From the UHGV virus genome UHGV-0073224: DNA of 18,255 bases; one strand, given 5' to 3'. Below are positions 1-15,786 of the stretch, piece after piece (the stretch's first letter is position 1; every line of letters starts with the position of its first letter). Source of the DNA: a virus. The translations under genes and the position numbers were made by a program. Below the pieces are notes generated by a model that made no database searches, was not told the origin of the DNA, and was given only the letters and a program-made list of their open reading frames with translations.

Positions 1-53
1 CCTTTCTCGTTGCACCACCAGTACTGCTGAATAACGATGTATGATTTGCTCAT
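1..53 (-). CDS. 5' end of a gene that runs off the left edge (partial)
   Basis: ATG at about 53..51 overlaps the stop of the 355-aa ORF (ATGA); reading frame stays open to position 1. Only about 17 codons visible. Confidence 0.3.
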   Translation of the reverse strand, partial: MSKSYIVIQQYWWCNEK

Positions 54-1117
54 AGCGCGGCTCCCTGTCGTAACTGGTCGGCGAGTTCGAATTCACCATG
101 GTTAGTAAATTCGCCTGCAAGTTTTTCTCTTAGCTTCATAACGGCTTCCTTTGCGCTTTCGATATCCTTATGGTGCCCTGCGCTGTACTTCTTCCCGTTA
201 AATTGAACGCTTGCTACATATCGCTTATCGCGCTTATTCCAATAGACCCCCTTGACACCAGTGGTGTTATTTTTCTGGGTTGGTTTGTTGAATTGATTCT
301 GCGATAGAGAGCAAAGGCGCAGGTTTCTTATGCTGTTGTCTTTCTTGATGCCATTGATATGGTCGATAGGCTGGGAAGGCCATTCTCCGTAATGTAGAAG
401 CCATGCTAGACGGTGAGCAAAGCACTTCTTGCCAAACAGCGAAAAGGCGTAATAGCCCTGCCAAGTTTGAGAGCCAATAATTGCTCCTTCCTGACGACCT
501 GCAAAGTTGACTTTCGCGGTAAGAACTCCAGTTTCAGGGTTGTAGTCAATAAGGTCTCTGATATCGCCAACAGACATGAGCAGATTCTTATTAAGGATTT
601 CAATTTCCTTCTGGAGTGGTTCAGATGCCTCACGCCTAACTTCAGCCAGGAAAGCATCGGTGGCTGGGGTTTTGTTATCTGACTCCAGCCACTGGTTGTA
701 GTAATAATCGAACATGCCAGTAGGATAACCACATCCGCCGTGCACGTGGTCTTTCATAGCAGAACCACACATGCAGTAGTCATTGTCAGTATTACTAATG
801 ATGTTGATAAGTTGCTGTGTCCGTTGCTTCAACATCGCATTCTCCGCCGCCAGCGCCGAAAACTTCTCGTGTGCCAACTTAACAGCTGCATCAGCCTGCT
901 TAATTGACTCAGTCGCTTTCTGGTGGTCTTCGGCCAGCCCTGCTAAATCAGCCTCCAGTTCGGCTAGGCGTTCATTTAATGCATCTCGTTCATCCAGTAG
1001 AGCCAGCACAACCTGAGGTGTTACTTTCATACGAAATGCCAGCAATTTTTGAGGTGTTGCTACTGTTTCAATTGCTACTGCTGCCTCACGCAGTACCTGA
1101 TAGTCAATCTTGCTCAC
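50..1117 (-). CDS. Ea22-family mosaic protein: N-terminal coiled coil, central HNH nuclease motif, C-terminal AP2-like DNA-binding domain
   Basis: Track ORF 355 aa. HNH-like motif HRLAWLLHYGEWP...IDHINGIKKDNSIRNLRL; AP2-like segment GVKGVYWNKRDKRYVASVQFNGKKYSAGHH. N-terminal coiled coil and C-terminal tail resemble the adjacent ORF 1114..1713. Confidence 0.7.
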   Translation of the reverse strand: MSKIDYQVLREAAVAIETVATPQKLLAFRMKVTPQVVLALLDERDALNERLAELEADLAGLAEDHQKATESIKQADAAVKLAHEKFSALAAENAMLKQRTQQLINIISNTDNDYCMCGSAMKDHVHGGCGYPTGMFDYYYNQWLESDNKTPATDAFLAEVRREASEPLQKEIEILNKNLLMSVGDIRDLIDYNPETGVLTAKVNFAGRQEGAIIGSQTWQGYYAFSLFGKKCFAHRLAWLLHYGEWPSQPIDHINGIKKDNSIRNLRLCSLSQNQFNKPTQKNNTTGVKGVYWNKRDKRYVASVQFNGKKYSAGHHKDIESAKEAVMKLREKLAGEFTNHGEFELADQLRQGAAL

Positions 1118-1695: not shown

Positions 1696-1889
1696 TTCTT
1701 CCCACTCCGCCACATAGCATTCAGATATTTGTTTTGATTCACTGATGGAAAAGAATTTCTCTTAAGCAATTCCTCTCTCGATGGCATTGGCTTTACGCGT
1801 TGGCGAATAATCATTTCTGCCGGAAGAATGCCGGGATTGTATGCAAGTCCTCTCATGGTAAATTCCTCAGTCATTACTGATAGCGCCAT
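1692..1889 (-). CDS. small hypothetical early-left protein
   Basis: Track ORF 65 aa, co-oriented and overlapping its neighbours in a coupled chain. An alternative start MTEEF lies about 15 codons in. No recognisable motif. Confidence 0.4.
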
Positions 1890-2163
1890 AGCGTGAGCGG
1901 TAATTACGCAGGCGCGGGTCGATATATTCAGGGAATTTGTCTATTGTCGCTTTTCGCAACGGTCTCATTGCTGTTTCGTTTGTTCGGTCCTTCTCATCTT
2001 TTAACGCGAGTTGTATATCGCGTCGGTACATCCGTTCTGCTTTTGTTTCTGGTGGCAGATCGATAAACGTGTCGAAATTGTTTTTGATATTTTCCAGCAC
2101 CTCCGCCTTGGAGCTACCGGAACAGCGGCGCGGGTCATCCGCACCATACATAGGCGCTGGCAT
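1867..2163 (-). CDS. hypothetical early-left protein (98 aa)
   Basis: Track ORF; AAGGA about 7 nt upstream of the ATG at 2163; lies 24 nt downstream of the SSB-like gene. Confidence 0.55.
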
Positions 2164-2186
2164 AATGGAATCCTTATGTTGCTACT

Positions 2187-2570
2187 TTAGAAGGGAATTG
2201 AATCGTCGTATTCAGGATGATTTTGATGATTGCTACTTTGCTGCTGTTGGCTGTTTCCTGAGGTTGCAAATCCAATCTTTGCATTCAGTAATTCAAGAGT
2301 GATTGATTGACCATTTTGCCCCTGATAAACATCAACCCTGATGTTTTCTCCGGTAATTTCCACAATGCCACCTTCAACAAGAACACTACGGTAGTAATCC
2401 GCTTGCGCTCCCGGCTTGGCAAATACAACGGCGCTGTAGTTTGTCCATTCTTTCTTTTTTGTCTGGCGATCGTAATACTGAACGCCAGCACGGATGTTGA
2501 ATCCGATATTTTCCCCGGCCTGAAACTCTCTTGCGGGCTTGTTTAGTCTTACAGTAATCGAATGTGCCAT
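2187..2570 (-). CDS. ssb: single-strand DNA-binding (SSB-like, Ea10-type) protein
   Basis: Start MAHSITV at 2570 overlaps the erf stop (TAATG). Gln-rich linker and C-terminal tip ...EYDDSIPF resemble the SSB acidic tail (DDDIPF). Position next to erf fits a recombination module. Confidence 0.7.
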   Translation of the reverse strand: MAHSITVRLNKPAREFQAGENIGFNIRAGVQYYDRQTKKKEWTNYSAVVFAKPGAQADYYRSVLVEGGIVEITGENIRVDVYQGQNGQSITLELLNAKIGFATSGNSQQQQSSNHQNHPEYDDSIPF

Positions 2571-3175
2571 TAAGCAGCCGCTCCTTCTAATTCGTCTCGT
2601 CTGATGTTGTAAACGTCCTGCGCTTTGTGCTGCTCCGGTGTTCCTTCGAGCATCTTCCACGCTTTGGCGAACGCCTGTTTAAGCTCTTCCACGGTGTTTT
2701 TCTGCATTGCTGCGTCAGTGAATGCTTTTAGAACCTGTTCAGGTGTAGGTGATGGTTTTGATTGCTTTGCTACTGCGTTCTGCTGATGTTTATGCTCGTC
2801 TGTATCTGCATCTTTCGCATCATCAATGCCGAACAAACCATTGAGGCAATACTTGCGTGCATAAGAGCTTGTAGCTCCCGTAACTTGTGCAGAATCCATC
2901 CCTTTCTTGCTTTCTTCCTCTCGTGCAAGAGCGGTTGCCGTATGACTGTTTTCGCCATCGGTAATAGTTGCCGTGGCTTTCACGTAATACCGATCACCAA
3001 TCAACACAACTTCATCGCTGATTGATAAAAACAGGCCATTCAGTAACGGCTTAACGCCTTCAAGAATGTCTTCGCAGCTTCTGTATTTATATTTTCCGAA
3101 TGAGTTGTACTGATTCTTTGGCGCGTTCAGATTCTCCTGAATAGCTGCCAGTCTTGCGTAAAATTCTTTGCTCAT
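2570..3175 (-). CDS. erf: Erf-family single-strand annealing recombinase
   Basis: Starts MSKEFYARL... and contains ...SYARKYCLNGLFGI..., matching recalled P22 Erf. The track ORF extends to a TTG at 3205; the ATG at 3175 is the more plausible start. Confidence 0.85.
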   Translation of the reverse strand: MSKEFYARLAAIQENLNAPKNQYNSFGKYKYRSCEDILEGVKPLLNGLFLSISDEVVLIGDRYYVKATATITDGENSHTATALAREEESKKGMDSAQVTGATSSYARKYCLNGLFGIDDAKDADTDEHKHQQNAVAKQSKPSPTPEQVLKAFTDAAMQKNTVEELKQAFAKAWKMLEGTPEQHKAQDVYNIRRDELEGAAA

Positions 3176-3356: not shown

Positions 3357-3435
3357 GAATATCTCCTTCGTTACCGATTAATTCTTTCATCTGACGAATG
3401 AATTCTTCGTCTGACCAGTTATCTGTAAAACTCAT
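3277..3435 (-). CDS. small acidic ORF overlapping the kil stop
   Basis: Not on track (52 aa: MSFTDNWSDEEFIRQMKELIGNEGD...). Its ATG overlaps the kil stop (ATGA) but has no clear RBS; overlaps 3186..3356 in another frame, so only one may be real. Confidence 0.3.
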   Translation of the reverse strand: MSFTDNWSDEEFIRQMKELIGNEGDIHVTCNHSEGEQVTETHVHAESSLVSP

Positions 3436-3584
3436 TTCCTGCGATACCACGGAAGGTTGATAGCTGATTTCATCGCTTTATTTGCTTCAAGCCACATTTT
3501 TGAATCACCAATAAATCTGGCTATTACTGCTTTGTTCTGTGCAGCACGAAGCATCTGGTGATTGATGGCTATTTCATTGCGCAT
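3432..3584 (-). CDS. kil: Kil-like host cell-division inhibitor
   Basis: Not on track (50 aa: MRNEIAINHQMLRAAQNKAVIARFIGDSKMWLEANKAMKSAINLPWYRRK). The IA.FIGD.KM motif and position directly after cIII match recalled lambda Kil. Confidence 0.6.
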   Translation of the reverse strand: MRNEIAINHQMLRAAQNKAVIARFIGDSKMWLEANKAMKSAINLPWYRRK

Positions 3585-3700
3585 AATAAGACCTCAACTC
3601 TTTTCCATCCGTCACGTAATTTACGGGTGATTCGTTCAAGTAAAGATTCATTTAATTGGAAGGCACCCATGCGAGCGCCTCCCGCGATTGCGTAAATCAT
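3569..3700 (-). CDS. cIII: CIII-like FtsH (HflB) inhibitor
   Basis: Not on track (43 aa: MIYAIAGGARMGAFQLNESLLERITRKLRDGWKRVEVLLCAMK). Core ESLLERITRKLRDGWKR matches recalled lambda CIII; AAGGAA RBS; overlaps the kil start. Confidence 0.7.
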   Translation of the reverse strand: MIYAIAGGARMGAFQLNESLLERITRKLRDGWKRVEVLLCAMK

Positions 3701-3724: not shown

Positions 3725-4693
3725 TTAGTAGGTTATTTTTGTTGCGAATACTTCGCCTTTTACGATGGCTGTTATGATATTTTTAGCAACATCTTCTGAT
3801 GCACCAACCTTGATAAGGTCAGCAAGTATTTTGTTATTTACTTCTTTCCGGTGAGCTTTATCCTTTGCTCTACGCTCTTCTTCGTCCTTGATTCTTTTTT
3901 CTTCTGCTATTCTGGCTTGCTCTTTTGCTTCAGCCTCGCGCCGGATTCGTTCAGCCTCCTCCTGTGCTTTTCGGCGTTCTGCTTCAATTGCCGCCTGCTT
4001 TTCTCTTTCAGCTCGTTCTGCTGCCTCTTTTGCTTCGCGCTGTGCTCGTTGCTCGGCTTCAATGCGTTCACGCTCTGCACGTTCCGCTGCGGCCTTAGCT
4101 TCTGCTTCTCGCCTTGCTGCTGCTTCAATTTCGGCTTTTGCCTTTGCTTCGGCTTCTGCTCTGGCTTTCTCTTCAGCTTCTCTTTTTAAGCGTTCTTCAT
4201 GCTCTCGCTTTTCCTGCTCCGCTTTGAGTCTTGCCTCTTCTCTTTGGCGGTCAAATTCGCGATCCATCAAAATAGCTATTTCATGGTCAGACTCAATTTG
4301 CTTTGCGAGAGCTTCAGCTGCTGCCTTAGCTTCTTCTTCGGCTTTAATCCGCGCCTGTTCTTCCTCATAATCAGTAAGAGGCTGGCGCGCCTTGGCTTTC
4401 AGCTCATCAAGGCGATCACGCACTGTCTTGCGGTTGGCATCAATTAGCTTTGGAATTTCCTTCAGTTCAGCAACAAGGTCTTTGCCAAGACCATCGAGAT
4501 ATGTTTTCGTCTGCGCAACTTTATACGCCAGAGAAGCGATCTCCTTTCTGCCCTTTGCCGTTGTGATATCAGGCACAAAGGACATAACTTCACGTTCAAC
4601 CTTTTGAAGGATTTCTTCAATCTGGTCGGCAGACTGAAATACAGTCATTGCATTTGCTTTTTCAATAACAACTAAATCTGTTACTTCACTCAT
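3725..4693 (-). CDS. coiled-coil protein with long Glu/Ala/Lys/Arg-rich low-complexity central region
   Basis: Track ORF 3725..4747 begins at a TTG; ATG (MSEVTDLVV) at 4693 has a GGAGGATAT RBS. Central section is EAEAKAKAEIEAAARREAEAKAAAERAERE...; globular N- and C-terminal ends. Confidence 0.6.
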   Translation of the reverse strand: MSEVTDLVVIEKANAMTVFQSADQIEEILQKVEREVMSFVPDITTAKGRKEIASLAYKVAQTKTYLDGLGKDLVAELKEIPKLIDANRKTVRDRLDELKAKARQPLTDYEEEQARIKAEEEAKAAAEALAKQIESDHEIAILMDREFDRQREEARLKAEQEKREHEERLKREAEEKARAEAEAKAKAEIEAAARREAEAKAAAERAERERIEAEQRAQREAKEAAERAEREKQAAIEAERRKAQEEAERIRREAEAKEQARIAEEKRIKDEEERRAKDKAHRKEVNNKILADLIKVGASEDVAKNIITAIVKGEVFATKITY

Positions 4694-4705
4694 ATATCCT
4701 CCGTC

Positions 4706-4734
4706 AAAAAAATTGCCCTCACACTGGAGGGCAA
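4706..4734 (-). terminator. intrinsic terminator-like hairpin (minus strand) just upstream of the coiled-coil gene
   Basis: Plus-strand TTGCCCTC-ACACTG-GAGGGCAA gives an 8-bp stem; on the minus strand it is followed by a 7-T run. Confidence 0.5.
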
Positions 4735-4825
4735 AGAAGATTTCCAATAATCAGAACAAGTCGGCTCCTGTTTAGTTACGAGCGACATTGCTCACATAGC
4801 AGACTCGCAAATCTGCTATAGGTGC

Positions 4826-4987
4826 TTATTCGCATCGCATGACAACATCAAATTTTTCGAGATTACTTTGTCGCAACAATCCCTCTTCTACGCGGTCAGC
4901 TTTTCTATAATTATCAAATTCGAAATGTTTAATTACTTCTTTCGTTTCTCGCTCTATAACTTCAACAATGTATTTCTTATTCATCAT
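4826..4987 (-). CDS. small hypothetical protein (53 aa)
   Basis: Track ORF 4826..5050; internal start MMNKKYIVEV... at 4987 overlaps the stop of the upstream paralog gene (ATGA). Confidence 0.4.
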   Translation of the reverse strand: MMNKKYIVEVIERETKEVIKHFEFDNYRKADRVEEGLLRQSNLEKFDVVMRCE

Positions 4988-5262
4988 TCTTCCCCCAGGG
5001 CCTTGCTGATGGCTGCCTTGGCTCGTTTGTATTCGGTTAACTCTCTGCACCCTTCGTCATGCTCGTAAAGGAAGACAAGCTCTTGCAGTGCTTCAAGCAA
5101 ATCAGGAGCTGCTGCTATCAGTAGCGCATCCTCCCTTTCATTTCTTGTTGCTGCTTCAATGTATGTGTCACCAATCGTCACACCATGGAACGTAGTCATC
5201 ATCTCGTTGACGTTTCTAACCGTGTACTTCCATTTACCAGGCGTACCCTTAAACTCTTTCAT
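4984..5262 (-). CDS. small protein, paralog A of a duplicated family (conserved AAPDLLEALQ...ISKALGEE C-terminus)
   Basis: Track ORF 4984..5268 begins at a GTG; ATG (MKEFKGTPGKW) at 5262 has a GAGGTGG RBS. C-terminal half is shared with ORF 5783..6034. Confidence 0.55.
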   Translation of the reverse strand: MKEFKGTPGKWKYTVRNVNEMMTTFHGVTIGDTYIEAATRNEREDALLIAAAPDLLEALQELVFLYEHDEGCRELTEYKRAKAAISKALGEE

Positions 5263-5280
5263 ATCCACCTCTGTTGTTTA

Positions 5281-5310
5281 TGCCAAAAATAAAGGCCGAC
5301 TATGCGGCCT
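5281..5310 (-). terminator. intrinsic terminator (minus strand), copy 1 of a duplicated element
   Basis: Stem AGGCCG/CGGCCT with 6-nt loop (5293..5310), followed on the minus strand by TTTATTTTTGG; directly after the stop of ORF 5309..5779. The 32-bp block 5279..5310 is identical to 6053..6084. Confidence 0.55.
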
Positions 5311-5779
5311 AGTAGAATACCCAATTTTCTGTTTCTTGGTTGTGTCCAAAGTTATATTCAATATCTGGTGTTGATGTATCAATATTCTTCATCCCATCAA
5401 CAAGAGTTGATACAACAGCCAAATCTTGTTTGATTCTCATCAAATGGTATTTCTTCCGGCGCAATAAACTTTCAATGGCAAGTTTCTTCGTCGGGAACGC
5501 AAAAGATCTTTCTGCATTTTTTGCTACTTTCTTAATTGCATATCTATTTCTCCTTTGTTTCCATTCCTGTAACCACTGATTTGGTGCTGGTTTAAAATTA
5601 ACAATCCAATGCGCAGGAACCAACCATGCATAATGCTCTGTCTGATGAAAAGCTATATATTGAAGTGCGAATATTTTGATTCCATCTTCTTCAACTGTCG
5701 CTTGGAATCTCCAGAAAACAGGCATTCCATCATGTTCAGTTTCTGATTCAGGAAAAGGTACGCTCCATGATTTTGTCAT
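5309..5779 (-). CDS. hypothetical protein (156 aa), second gene of a two-gene module
   Basis: Track ORF; GGAG upstream; start 4 nt after the stop of paralog B; terminator hairpin directly after its stop. No motif I recognise. Confidence 0.55.
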   Translation of the reverse strand: MTKSWSVPFPESETEHDGMPVFWRFQATVEEDGIKIFALQYIAFHQTEHYAWLVPAHWIVNFKPAPNQWLQEWKQRRNRYAIKKVAKNAERSFAFPTKKLAIESLLRRKKYHLMRIKQDLAVVSTLVDGMKNIDTSTPDIEYNFGHNQETENWVFY

Positions 5780-5782
5780 ATA

Positions 5783-6034
5783 TTACTCATCTCCAAGGGC
5801 TTTGCTGATTGCTGACTGTGCTTTCGATACTTCATCAGGATAATGGTCATTCCAGTTTTGCTTGTATGCCTTGTTTAGCATCGCTTGCAGGGCTTCGAGC
5901 AAATCAGGAGCTGCCTCCATCAATCTCACATCACCTCGATGGATGGTTGTATCGTCAAACGTGAAATAAACCCCATCATCGTTAAATCCAGCGCCAACAA
6001 CATTCCATGGCCTTTTCATTCTTCCTACTGTCAT
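5783..6034 (-). CDS. small protein, paralog B of the duplicated family
   Basis: Track ORF 83 aa (MTVGRMKRPWNVV...); GAGGTG RBS; shares EAAPDLLEALQ and ISKALGDE with paralog A. Confidence 0.55.
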   Translation of the reverse strand: MTVGRMKRPWNVVGAGFNDDGVYFTFDDTTIHRGDVRLMEAAPDLLEALQAMLNKAYKQNWNDHYPDEVSKAQSAISKALGDE

Positions 6035-6719: not shown

Positions 6720-7052
6720 TCAATCGTAATAAGCTGGAATTGATTTTCCGCGTTGCTTCTGGCGGCCTGAGCAAGTCACACCCATTTCACTGCGTGGCTT
6801 GCTGTACCATGTGCGCTGATTCTTGCGCTCAATACGTTGCAGGTTGCTTTCAATCTGTTCGTGGTATTCAGCTAGCACCGTAAGGTCTATAGGATTCAGT
6901 GCGCTTTCTACTCGTGATTTCGGTTTGCGATTCAGCGAGAGAATAGGGCGGTTAACTGGTTTTGCGCTTACCCCAACCAACAGGGGATTTGCTGCTTTCC
7001 ATTGAGCCTGTTTCTCTGCGCGACGTTCGCGGCGGCGTGTTTGTGCATCCAT
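6720..7052 (-). CDS. N: N transcription antiterminator (lambda type)
   Basis: Track ORF 110 aa beginning MDAQTRRRERRAEKQAQWKAANPLLVGVSAKPVNRPILSL..., matching recalled lambda N including the Arg-rich boxB-binding motif. Confidence 0.92.
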   Translation of the reverse strand: MDAQTRRRERRAEKQAQWKAANPLLVGVSAKPVNRPILSLNRKPKSRVESALNPIDLTVLAEYHEQIESNLQRIERKNQRTWYSKPRSEMGVTCSGRQKQRGKSIPAYYD

Positions 7053-15630: not shown

Positions 15631-15705
15631 GGGTCAGTCGTATAAAGGTCATTACGGAAGGCTGTTAACCTTCTTATCGTGGTTCGAGTCCACGCTGTCC
15701 CGCCA
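15631..15705 (+). tRNA. tRNA-like gene, anticodon GUU (Asn) by manual fold
   Basis: Acceptor GGGTCAG/CTGTCCC, anticodon arm GAAGG-CTGTTAA-CCTTC, T-arm CGTGG-TTCGAGT-CCACG, 3' GCCA. D-arm is non-canonical (3-4 bp stem). Confidence 0.5.
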
Positions 15706-15710
15706 AACAT

Positions 15711-15786
15711 GCTGGTTTAGCTCCAATGGTAGAGCGGTCGCCTTGTAAGTGAATAGGTAGCGGTTCAAATCCGTTAACCGGCACCA
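15711..15786 (+). tRNA. tRNA-like gene, possibly Thr (UGU); anticodon stem imperfect, possible pseudo-tRNA
   Basis: Acceptor GCTGGTT/AACCGGC, D-arm GCTC-CAATGGTA-GAGC, T-arm AGCGG-TTCAAAT-CCGTT, 3' ACCA. Expected anticodon stem GTCGC/GTGAA does not pair; loop CTTGTAA. Confidence 0.4.

Follow-up and report, generated by a model that had tools for sequence, protein, structure and literature searches.

We examined an 18,255-nt stretch of the virus genome UHGV-0073224, referred to below as the window, and in particular a gene for a 322-aa protein on its minus strand. The open reading frame (ORF) occupies positions 3725-4693, with its ATG codon at 4693 and its stop codon, included in these coordinates, at 3725-3727. 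Judged by its gene content, the window is the early-left operon of a lambdoid prophage, and the initial annotation of this DNA was right to call the 322-aa product an early-left protein. All of the early-left genes named here lie on the minus strand. The order of transcription begins with the N gene (6720-7052) and runs through several unknown ORFs, a 94-aa ORF (4984-5268), a 53-aa ORF (4826-4987) and a leader with a terminator to the 322-aa gene. The next genes downstream are cIII (3569-3700; Pfam Lambda_CIII, E = 4e-15) and kil (3432-3584; Pfam Lambda_Kil, E = 1.7e-20), followed by two small ORFs and a recombination module (1867-3175). This module was recognized by Pfam and PHROG matches and consists of Erf (2570-3175; Pfam ERF, 5.6e-44), an SSB-like gene (2187-2660; PHROG 44 SSB, 1.5e-29) and the anti-RecBCD gene Abc2 (1867-2163; Pfam Anti-RecBCD_p2, 7e-37).

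As first described, the gene is preceded by its own terminator hairpin and a strong ribosome-binding site (RBS). The Shine-Dalgarno sequence GGAGG (4698-4702) is found 4 nt 5' of the ATG codon. A pattern scan and RNA folding identified a terminator-like hairpin with an 8-bp stem and a 6-nt loop (4734-4713), followed by a run of seven T residues. The whole element (4706-4734) ends 12 nt before the ATG codon, with 11 nt between. Its counterpart in phage Sf6 is annotated 'terminator; homology to phage lambda; tL2A', and the hairpin is the homologue of tL2A of lambda and Sf6. In the minimum free energy (MFE) fold of 4690-4745 (minus strand), UCUUCUU pairs with GGAGGAU in the Shine-Dalgarno region and so lengthens the terminator stem. 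This predicted pairing could make the RBS of the 322-aa gene inaccessible when the transcript is full-length. The 141-nt leader (4690-4830), in which RNA folding places an 11-bp hairpin upstream of the terminator (4795-4820), has an MFE of -45.9 kcal/mol (z = -3.84 relative to shuffles) and matched no RNA family in Rfam.

The tL2 terminator is contained in an 87-nt conserved block (4707-4793) that corresponds to a module boundary annotated as 'bsq4' in Sf6. A megablast search with 4694-4987 as the query matched 325 records, the majority of which cover only query positions 195-281. Records of ~320 lambdoid and Stx phages have the block at 94-100% identity, the majority of them without the 322-aa gene, and window position 4793 is where homology to most phages ends. 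From this pattern of matches, we regard the block as a mosaic 'boundary sequence' that lambda and Stx phages have in common with the window. By comparison, at least 80% of the stretch holding the 53-aa ORF (PHROG 6949) was covered in just 7 phage records. This ORF had been described as following the 322-aa gene and coupled to it. It lies upstream in the transcript, with 132 nt of structured leader and the terminator in between, and its start overlaps the stop codon of the 94-aa ORF (PHROG 1273) in the sequence ATGA. As read from this arrangement, the 53-aa ORF is coupled to the preceding 94-aa ORF and is outside the module of the 322-aa gene.

The 322-aa protein is 100% identical to the product of Sf6 gene 33, which occupies the same place after tL2A, with no difference between the two, and is annotated 'similar to D3 Orf53'. 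A second relative has a genetic name. Phage phi80 agt is a CHARACTERISED homologue of the 322-aa gene and also encodes exactly 322 aa. The two proteins are homologous over their full length, share a three-part architecture (identities of 42% in the N-terminal domain, 71% in the core and 40% in the C-terminal domain) and are encoded at the head of an early-left recombination module. In the phi80 annotation, the agt product (gp39) bears the label 'anti-toxin for Gam; Mog (modifier of Gam)', and gamL, which comes next, that of 'toxic without Mog'. The third relative, Orf53 of Pseudomonas phage D3, has both end domains in common with the 322-aa protein, and its gene immediately precedes those of Erf and an exonuclease, but it is 354 aa long, with an insert after the N-terminal domain. 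For the N-terminal domain, tblastn gave matches to phi80 agt at 41.5% identity (E = 7e-17) and to D3 orf53 at 54.6% (E = 1e-30). On the basis of this similarity, we place the 322-aa protein in a family together with phi80 Agt/Mog, Sf6 gp33 and D3 Orf53.

The gene and its family are widespread. Copies with ~98-99% nucleotide identity were found in 35 phage records (among them mEp043, mEp213, mEp234, HK544, HK633, IME10, Sf101, CUS-3, HF4s and some Stx1a phages), and 530 of 5426 complete Escherichia coli genomes (~10%) have the gene. A phmmer search with the N-terminal 117 residues returned 4939 representatives of 50%-identity clusters at E<=1e-3, of which 3420 were at E<=1e-10. The match is invariably N-terminal; the proteins listed are ~95-429 aa long, the bulk of them ~190-430 aa, and full-length members mostly ~280-430 aa. 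An alignment of 112 diverse members revealed the conserved N-terminal motifs VPDxxTxKGR, SKT and RxPLTxWE, all present in the 322-aa protein. It also revealed a linker between the two ends with a median length of 171 aa (158 aa here), 48% charged residues and 21% alanine, and a C-terminal domain of ~45 aa with a near-invariant histidine that ends in I-x-Y/F.

Despite its size, the family is poorly represented in curated databases. The whole protein had no meaningful match in Pfam, NCBIfam or PADLOC. There is no Pfam model for the N-terminal domain family, and Pfam searches with 10 diverse members gave noise or weak matches. Three PHROGs (1376, 17211 and 21365) match the protein, all of unknown function. 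Separate remote homology searches with the N- and C-terminal domains, as proposed at the outset, turned up no informative relative. Specifically, 57 C-terminal domains gave noise or weak matches to RuvA_C, UBA, HhH and Glycos_trans_3N in Pfam, and searches of Protein Data Bank sequences with the protein and with profiles of both domains returned coiled or charged proteins, designed repeats and RuvA domain III (E = 0.16). P22 Abc1/Arf and the DUF1351 proteins of Gram-positive phages are helper genes embedded in phage recombination modules. They share with the 322-aa family the concept of a non-essential recombination-module helper, but we detected no sequence relationship. A suspected resemblance to DUF1351 (PF07083) was dropped, as hmmscan gave no match at E<=5 in 10 diverse members, and Phage_Arf matched one member only, at E = 0.6.

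The two ends of the protein had been described as globular, and this description holds, as both have an ordinary composition and are confidently folded in AlphaFold2 (AF2) models. The N-terminal domain (residues 1-117; 4343-4693), delimited by AF2, phmmer and alignments, was modelled with a mean predicted local distance difference test score (pLDDT) of 88.7 and a predicted template modelling score (pTM) of 0.61. It comprises helices at residues 12-20, 22-37 and 46-117, in a fold in which the two short helices are predicted to pack against the start of the long one. Residues D42, T45, G48, R49, S54, K63, G70, D85, R88, R103-P105-L106 and E110 are invariant or nearly so, and the helix at 46-115 shows an amphipathic periodicity (period 3.6) that stands above shuffles. 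Residues 118-150 (4244-4342; pLDDT >85) continue this helix and contain the motif (I/F)E(A/S)DHE(I/M)A(L/I)LM..FDR, in which E138 and A140 are near-invariant across diverse phages in two alignments. The C-terminal domain (residues 281-322; 3728-3853) has the motif H-(R/K)-x-x-I-N ... G-x-x-E-x-x-A-K ... I-x-Y, the last part of which is at the carboxyl end. H281 is near-invariant, and a terminal tyrosine is found in 94 of the 112 family members; the 322-aa protein ends in ITY. AF2 models this domain with a pLDDT of 89-96, as a helix running on to residue 295 and another at 300-311.

Between the ends lies a helical rod of low complexity rich in E, A, K and R (residues 151-280; 3854-4243), which we delimited by composition, charge pattern and AF2. 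Over residues ~150-285, E, A, K, R and Q account for 87-97% of positions and the entropy is ~2.0-2.6 bits; charged residues make up 59% of the core, strongly hydrophobic residues 6% and alanine about 25%. The centre had been described as a low-complexity coiled coil, of which the low-complexity helix stands and the coiled coil does not. The best occupancy of the heptad a/d positions is 0.16 (range within the core 0.12-0.25), compared with 0.88 for GCN4 and 0.56 for tropomyosin, and no hydrophobic or alanine periodicity of 3.5-3.67 residues rises above shuffles. With low a/d occupancy, no periodicity and no hydrophobic seam, a canonical coiled coil was dropped. Opposite-charge pairs at i/i+4 reach 0.41 per residue, compared with 0.12-0.17 in the controls. 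Full-length AF2 based on the 112-sequence alignment (pLDDT 86, pTM 0.39) predicts helices at 12-20, 22-38, 46-160, 172-295 and 300-311; the break at 161-171 is of low confidence, and the tail is ordered. Autocorrelation of residue identity within the core has peaks at lags 8, 14 and 22 and is weak at 11. The one trace of an 11-residue repeat is a modest periodicity of E/D at 2.75 residues, and we do not claim such a repeat or a hendecad coiled coil.

Given its charge pattern, the lack of a hydrophobic seam and the long helices in the AF2 model, we read the core as a single alpha-helix (SAH). By computational criteria it looks like an ER/K SAH, a class of domain exemplified by those of myosin VI, myosin X and caldesmon. 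It resembles these domains in being ~60% charged, in its dense E-to-K/R pairs at i/i+4, in its few hydrophobic residues and in its predicted helicity, but is richer in alanine, and we regard the likeness as analogy, not homology. By this analogy, the core may serve as a rigid spacer. The underlying DNA is the degenerate short-period repeat that had been reported, for which Tandem Repeats Finder (TRF) gave periods of 6, 15 and 18 (63-87% matches, scores 43-48); a repeat search of the core DNA also found families of 27-37 nt with 67-89% identity. The coding strand is purine-rich, which accounts for the long spurious ORFs of low complexity in other frames on both strands, also noted from the start: three on the plus strand (3851-4189, 3888-4370 and 3925-4098) and one on the minus strand (3907-4128).

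It had been suggested that these repeats could expand or contract by slippage. Length changes do occur, and they are rare. A single 90%-identity cluster holds 471 sequences, and 322 aa is the dominant length among close relatives. The same length is found in homologues from Enterobacter, Citrobacter, Cronobacter and Salmonella (76-80% identity), in Klebsiella phage ST101-KPC2phi6.1 and in phi80, whereas many Klebsiella and Raoultella relatives have 333 aa. Exactly 969 nt were found in 32 of the 35 full-length copies in phage records and in ~47 of 60 copies sampled from E. coli genomes. In ungapped comparisons with the 969-nt genes of other lineages, identity is 85-93% in the N-terminal domain and 64-93% in the C-terminal domain, but 47-63% in the core, indicating that length is conserved while the core drifts or is replaced. 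In-frame minority alleles of 333, 309, 306, 304, 302, 300, 296, 290, 275 and 245 aa all carry their insertion or deletion within the helix, either in the low-complexity rod or just upstream. The 333-aa form has an 11-aa duplication, the 300-aa form of HK633 lacks 22 aa and the 245-aa form lacks 77 aa. Those junctions that we checked, the 11-aa duplication among them, fall at direct repeats of short length; the repeat is 'AAERAERE' where 22 aa are deleted and 'AKAAAE' where 77 aa are. To judge from these sequences, the dominant signal is stabilizing selection on length, and slippage or illegitimate recombination is a rare mutational mode.

The sequence of the protein is also constrained. Comparison with Sf6 gave 14 synonymous and no non-synonymous differences, and dS is 0.035-0.107. 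The dN/dS ratio is ~0.04 for the N-terminal domain and 0.035-0.058 for the C-terminal domain in comparisons with two loci (L045 and L046), or 0.12 with a third (L053). Disrupted alleles were found as well. An additional T at nucleotide 336, which splits the gene into ORFs of 116 and 214 aa, is shared by CUS-3 (L172 301-1270) and the E. coli strains UTI89, FDAARGOS_1295, EC13 and N63 (the CUS-3/K1 lineage), and gave rise to the split PHROGs 17211 and 21365. Other frameshift alleles have a 14-nt deletion or single-base losses. As CUS-3, a viable phage, carries a frameshift allele in its genome record, the gene appears to be dispensable.

Relatives of the protein are mosaic. One of them (P0182) is 90% identical in the N-terminal domain and 26% in the C-terminal domain, and another (P0184) is 60% and 88% identical, respectively; in phi80 Agt (L003 4501-5466) the core is 71% identical and the ends are 40-42%. 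Such discordant identities of the N-terminal domain, core and C-terminal domain imply, as far as alignments can tell, that recombination takes place inside the low-complexity core. The end domains and the core thus reassort between relatives, suggesting that the three parts are separable modules.

We found the family gene linked to recombination genes in phages of gamma-, beta- and alpha-proteobacteria, in varied arrangements. In Pseudomonas phages D3 and JBD44 and in Sinorhizobium phage phiLM21, it is followed by Erf and an exonuclease, which is of the YqaJ type in the two Pseudomonas phages. The order is family gene, GamL, RecT and exonuclease in phi80 and a Klebsiella phage, and family gene, cIII, then Erf and SSB in a Yersinia phage. 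Iodobacter phage PhiPLPE has the order RecE, Bet, family gene, RdgC. The family gene is one gene away from the single-strand annealing protein (SSAP) in a Vibrio phage (Erf, one gene, family gene) and in Shewanella phage 1/41 (family gene, one gene, RecT). In all of the annotated distant phages that we examined, the family gene is in the same-strand block as the SSAP gene, and the two adjoin in most. On one metagenomic contig, ERF, the family gene and YqaJ follow one another with their stop and start codons overlapping, and a second has ERF and YqaJ on the same strand ~2-3.6 kb upstream of the family gene. Among 80 IMG/VR loci, an SSAP follows in most, and about a dozen, some of them truncated, had none by the query set used. 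These SSAPs are Erf, Sak-like or RecT, in some cases accompanied by SSB, exonuclease, Abc2 or GamL. The same ~99%-identical protein is found with Erf and Abc2, with Erf, SSB and Abc2, or with RecT. The initial annotation had counted against its own reading the possibility that the protein is a conserved recombination-module component with a fixed repeat length. This is largely what we observe, as the family goes with recombination modules and 322 aa is the usual length, with the 333-aa relatives and minority variants as departures from it.

Given these results, we propose that the 322-aa protein serves the phage module for recombination and host-nuclease control as an accessory, non-essential adaptor or spacer, a reading to which we assign a probability of about one half. 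The architecture, conservation, purifying selection, gene neighbourhood and length conservation are observed, and from them we infer the adaptor mechanism and the identity of its partners. Transcription would start at pL and, under N antitermination, read through tL2 into the gene, and its strong RBS would direct translation. The product would be a cytoplasmic protein in which a helical N-terminal domain of ~115 aa and a C-terminal domain of ~45 aa with an aromatic end are kept apart by a stiff charged helix. If residues 151-280 form one helix, they would span ~20 nm, and the helix at 46-295, if continuous, ~35 nm. Each end may bind a partner. As the same protein is found with different recombinases and its domains reassort, a host factor or DNA is a likelier partner than any one phage recombinase. 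Through such binding, the protein might tune the action of phage recombination and anti-nuclease proteins on host RecBCD and SbcCD. The original guess of a scaffold or host-targeting factor holds in this broad form.

Several observations weigh against this proposal. The evidence for the function of Agt is its GenBank annotation. Upstream sequence was sufficient at 75 GamL loci; a family member precedes gamL by 10 nt at 23 of them and is lacking at 52, and the family occurs without GamL in the window and at many other loci. One distant member (P0425) has no recognizable SSAP within 5 kb. Sequence and fold searches yielded no informative relative of the protein, and the pTM of 0.39 is compatible with a monomeric rod, a hairpin or an oligomer alike. 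In the window, cIII and kil separate the gene from Erf, a looser adjacency than in other phages. Finally, early-left regions gather unrelated host-targeting genes, so that neighbourhood alone is weak evidence.

A more specific and clearly more tentative form of the adaptor proposal would make the protein a 'molecular ruler' and the founding member of a large unnamed class (~5000 clusters at 50% identity). A helix of selected length (~20-35 nm) would space two binding modules, bridging or capping RecBCD or SbcCD, or linking a DNA end to the replisome or SSB. If so, the protein would set the extent of host-nuclease inhibition instead of blocking the nucleases outright.

Alternatively, and much less probably than the adaptor reading, the protein may act early in host takeover or against host defences and have no part in recombination. 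It could, for example, be an inhibitor of, or decoy for, a host or defence complex whose helical arms are long (SMC/Rad50-like), or have another target, and its place near the recombination genes would then only reflect the habit of early-left operons of gathering such genes. The neighbouring genes cIII, kil and Abc2 all encode small host-targeting proteins, the gene is accessory and confined to ~10% of E. coli genomes, the pattern of reassortment suggests a target on the host side, and the distant member P0425 is away from any SSAP. Against this, the linkage to SSAP and exonuclease genes persists in very distant phages and in varied layouts, even with the family gene placed between the two, and the protein matched no PADLOC or anti-defence family.

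We consider it unlikely that the protein is a dedicated antidote to, or modifier of, its phage's own RecBCD inhibitor, which in the window would mean that it binds or tempers Abc2. The idea comes from phi80, whose gamL reportedly inhibits RecBCD and SbcCD and whose agt is reported by Rotman et al. (2012) to be an 'antidote, apparently encoding a modifier protein'; no mention of agt or Mog turned up in the papers that were searched. In phi80, gamL begins 7 nt after agt and is followed by RecT and an exonuclease, whereas here cIII, kil, Erf, the SSB-like gene and Abc2 follow, and BLAST with GamL queries found no gamL at the window locus. The tight 10-nt spacing at the 23 GamL loci with a family gene and the presence of Abc2 in the same operon would fit an antidote. 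However, the 52 GamL loci without a family partner led us to reject an obligate GamL antidote, and since GamL and the family each occur apart, a GamL-specific role cannot be general. The family is also present in modules without a known anti-RecBCD gene (D3, JBD44, phiLM21 and the loci L052, L064 and L065), an identical protein is paired with different downstream modules, and at least five genes lie between the 322-aa gene and Abc2 here. At several of the GamL loci without an Agt-like gene that we inspected, an ORF of ~68-90 aa starting with MHYGT precedes gamL by a short distance (for example, L139 3216-3422). This ORF is a Kil of the phi80 type (PHROG 294), not an alternative Agt.

Far less probable is a variable-length contingency locus, in which slippage of the repeats would generate functional diversity. 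The in-frame variants of 245-333 aa in the helix, with their checked junctions at short direct repeats, are of the kind that such a locus would produce. Its DNA repeats are degenerate, however, with TRF scores below 50, most copies in both phage records and E. coli genomes are exactly 969 nt, and 322 aa are kept across lineages whose cores are 47-63% identical. A TolA-like role in the cell envelope or in colicin import, implied by the names 'cell envelope biogenesis protein TolA' and 'colicin import' on many database records, is effectively refuted: these names can be traced to a similar composition, the long helix rich in Ala, Glu and Lys that recalls TolA domain II, but the full-length TolA model TIGR02794 scored 9.2 bits (cut-off 59.45; E = 0.62) with the charged helix alone aligned, and the protein has a phage, cytoplasmic setting, no hydrophobic N-terminal stretch that could be a membrane anchor (by eye) and no TolA C-terminal domain.

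The window contains further features outside the 322-aa gene and its module. The 94-aa ORF (4984-5268) and an 83-aa ORF (5783-6034), both on the minus strand, have a common C-terminal motif, (E/M)AAPDLLEALQ ... A(A/Q)(S/A)AISKALG(E/D)E, and appear from this similarity to be paralogues of unknown function. A further terminator-like hairpin on the minus strand, AGGCCG-CATAGT-CGGCCT with a T-rich tail (5293-5310), is located between a 156-aa ORF (5309-5779) and the 94-aa ORF. The 355-aa protein encoded at 50-1117 (minus strand) is Ead/Ea22-like at its N-terminus and also has HNH_3 and AP2 domains. Towards the right of the prophage are two adjoining tRNA genes on the plus strand (15631-15702 and 15711-15783; Rfam tRNA, 55 bits each).

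The protein itself entered GenBank with the Sf6 genome, and one of its homologues has a genetic name. What is new is the size of the family, its lack of a curated model, its cross-phylum linkage to recombination modules, its apparent single-alpha-helix centre, its conserved length and its independence from GamL. Red, Erf and RecET modules are widely used tools and drivers of phage mosaicism. The name 'TolA' is misapplied in thousands of records, which a correct annotation would clean. A survey of 325 lambdoid phages, in which the gene 33-type gene is not discussed, stated that few unexplained genes are left in recombination modules (Casjens/Smith 2025; PMC12315714). The family described here is an exception to that statement, as it is abundant, under strong purifying selection and tied in position to annealing proteins. 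Its function, once defined, could explain how phages temper their inhibition of RecBCD and SbcCD, and might improve recombineering.

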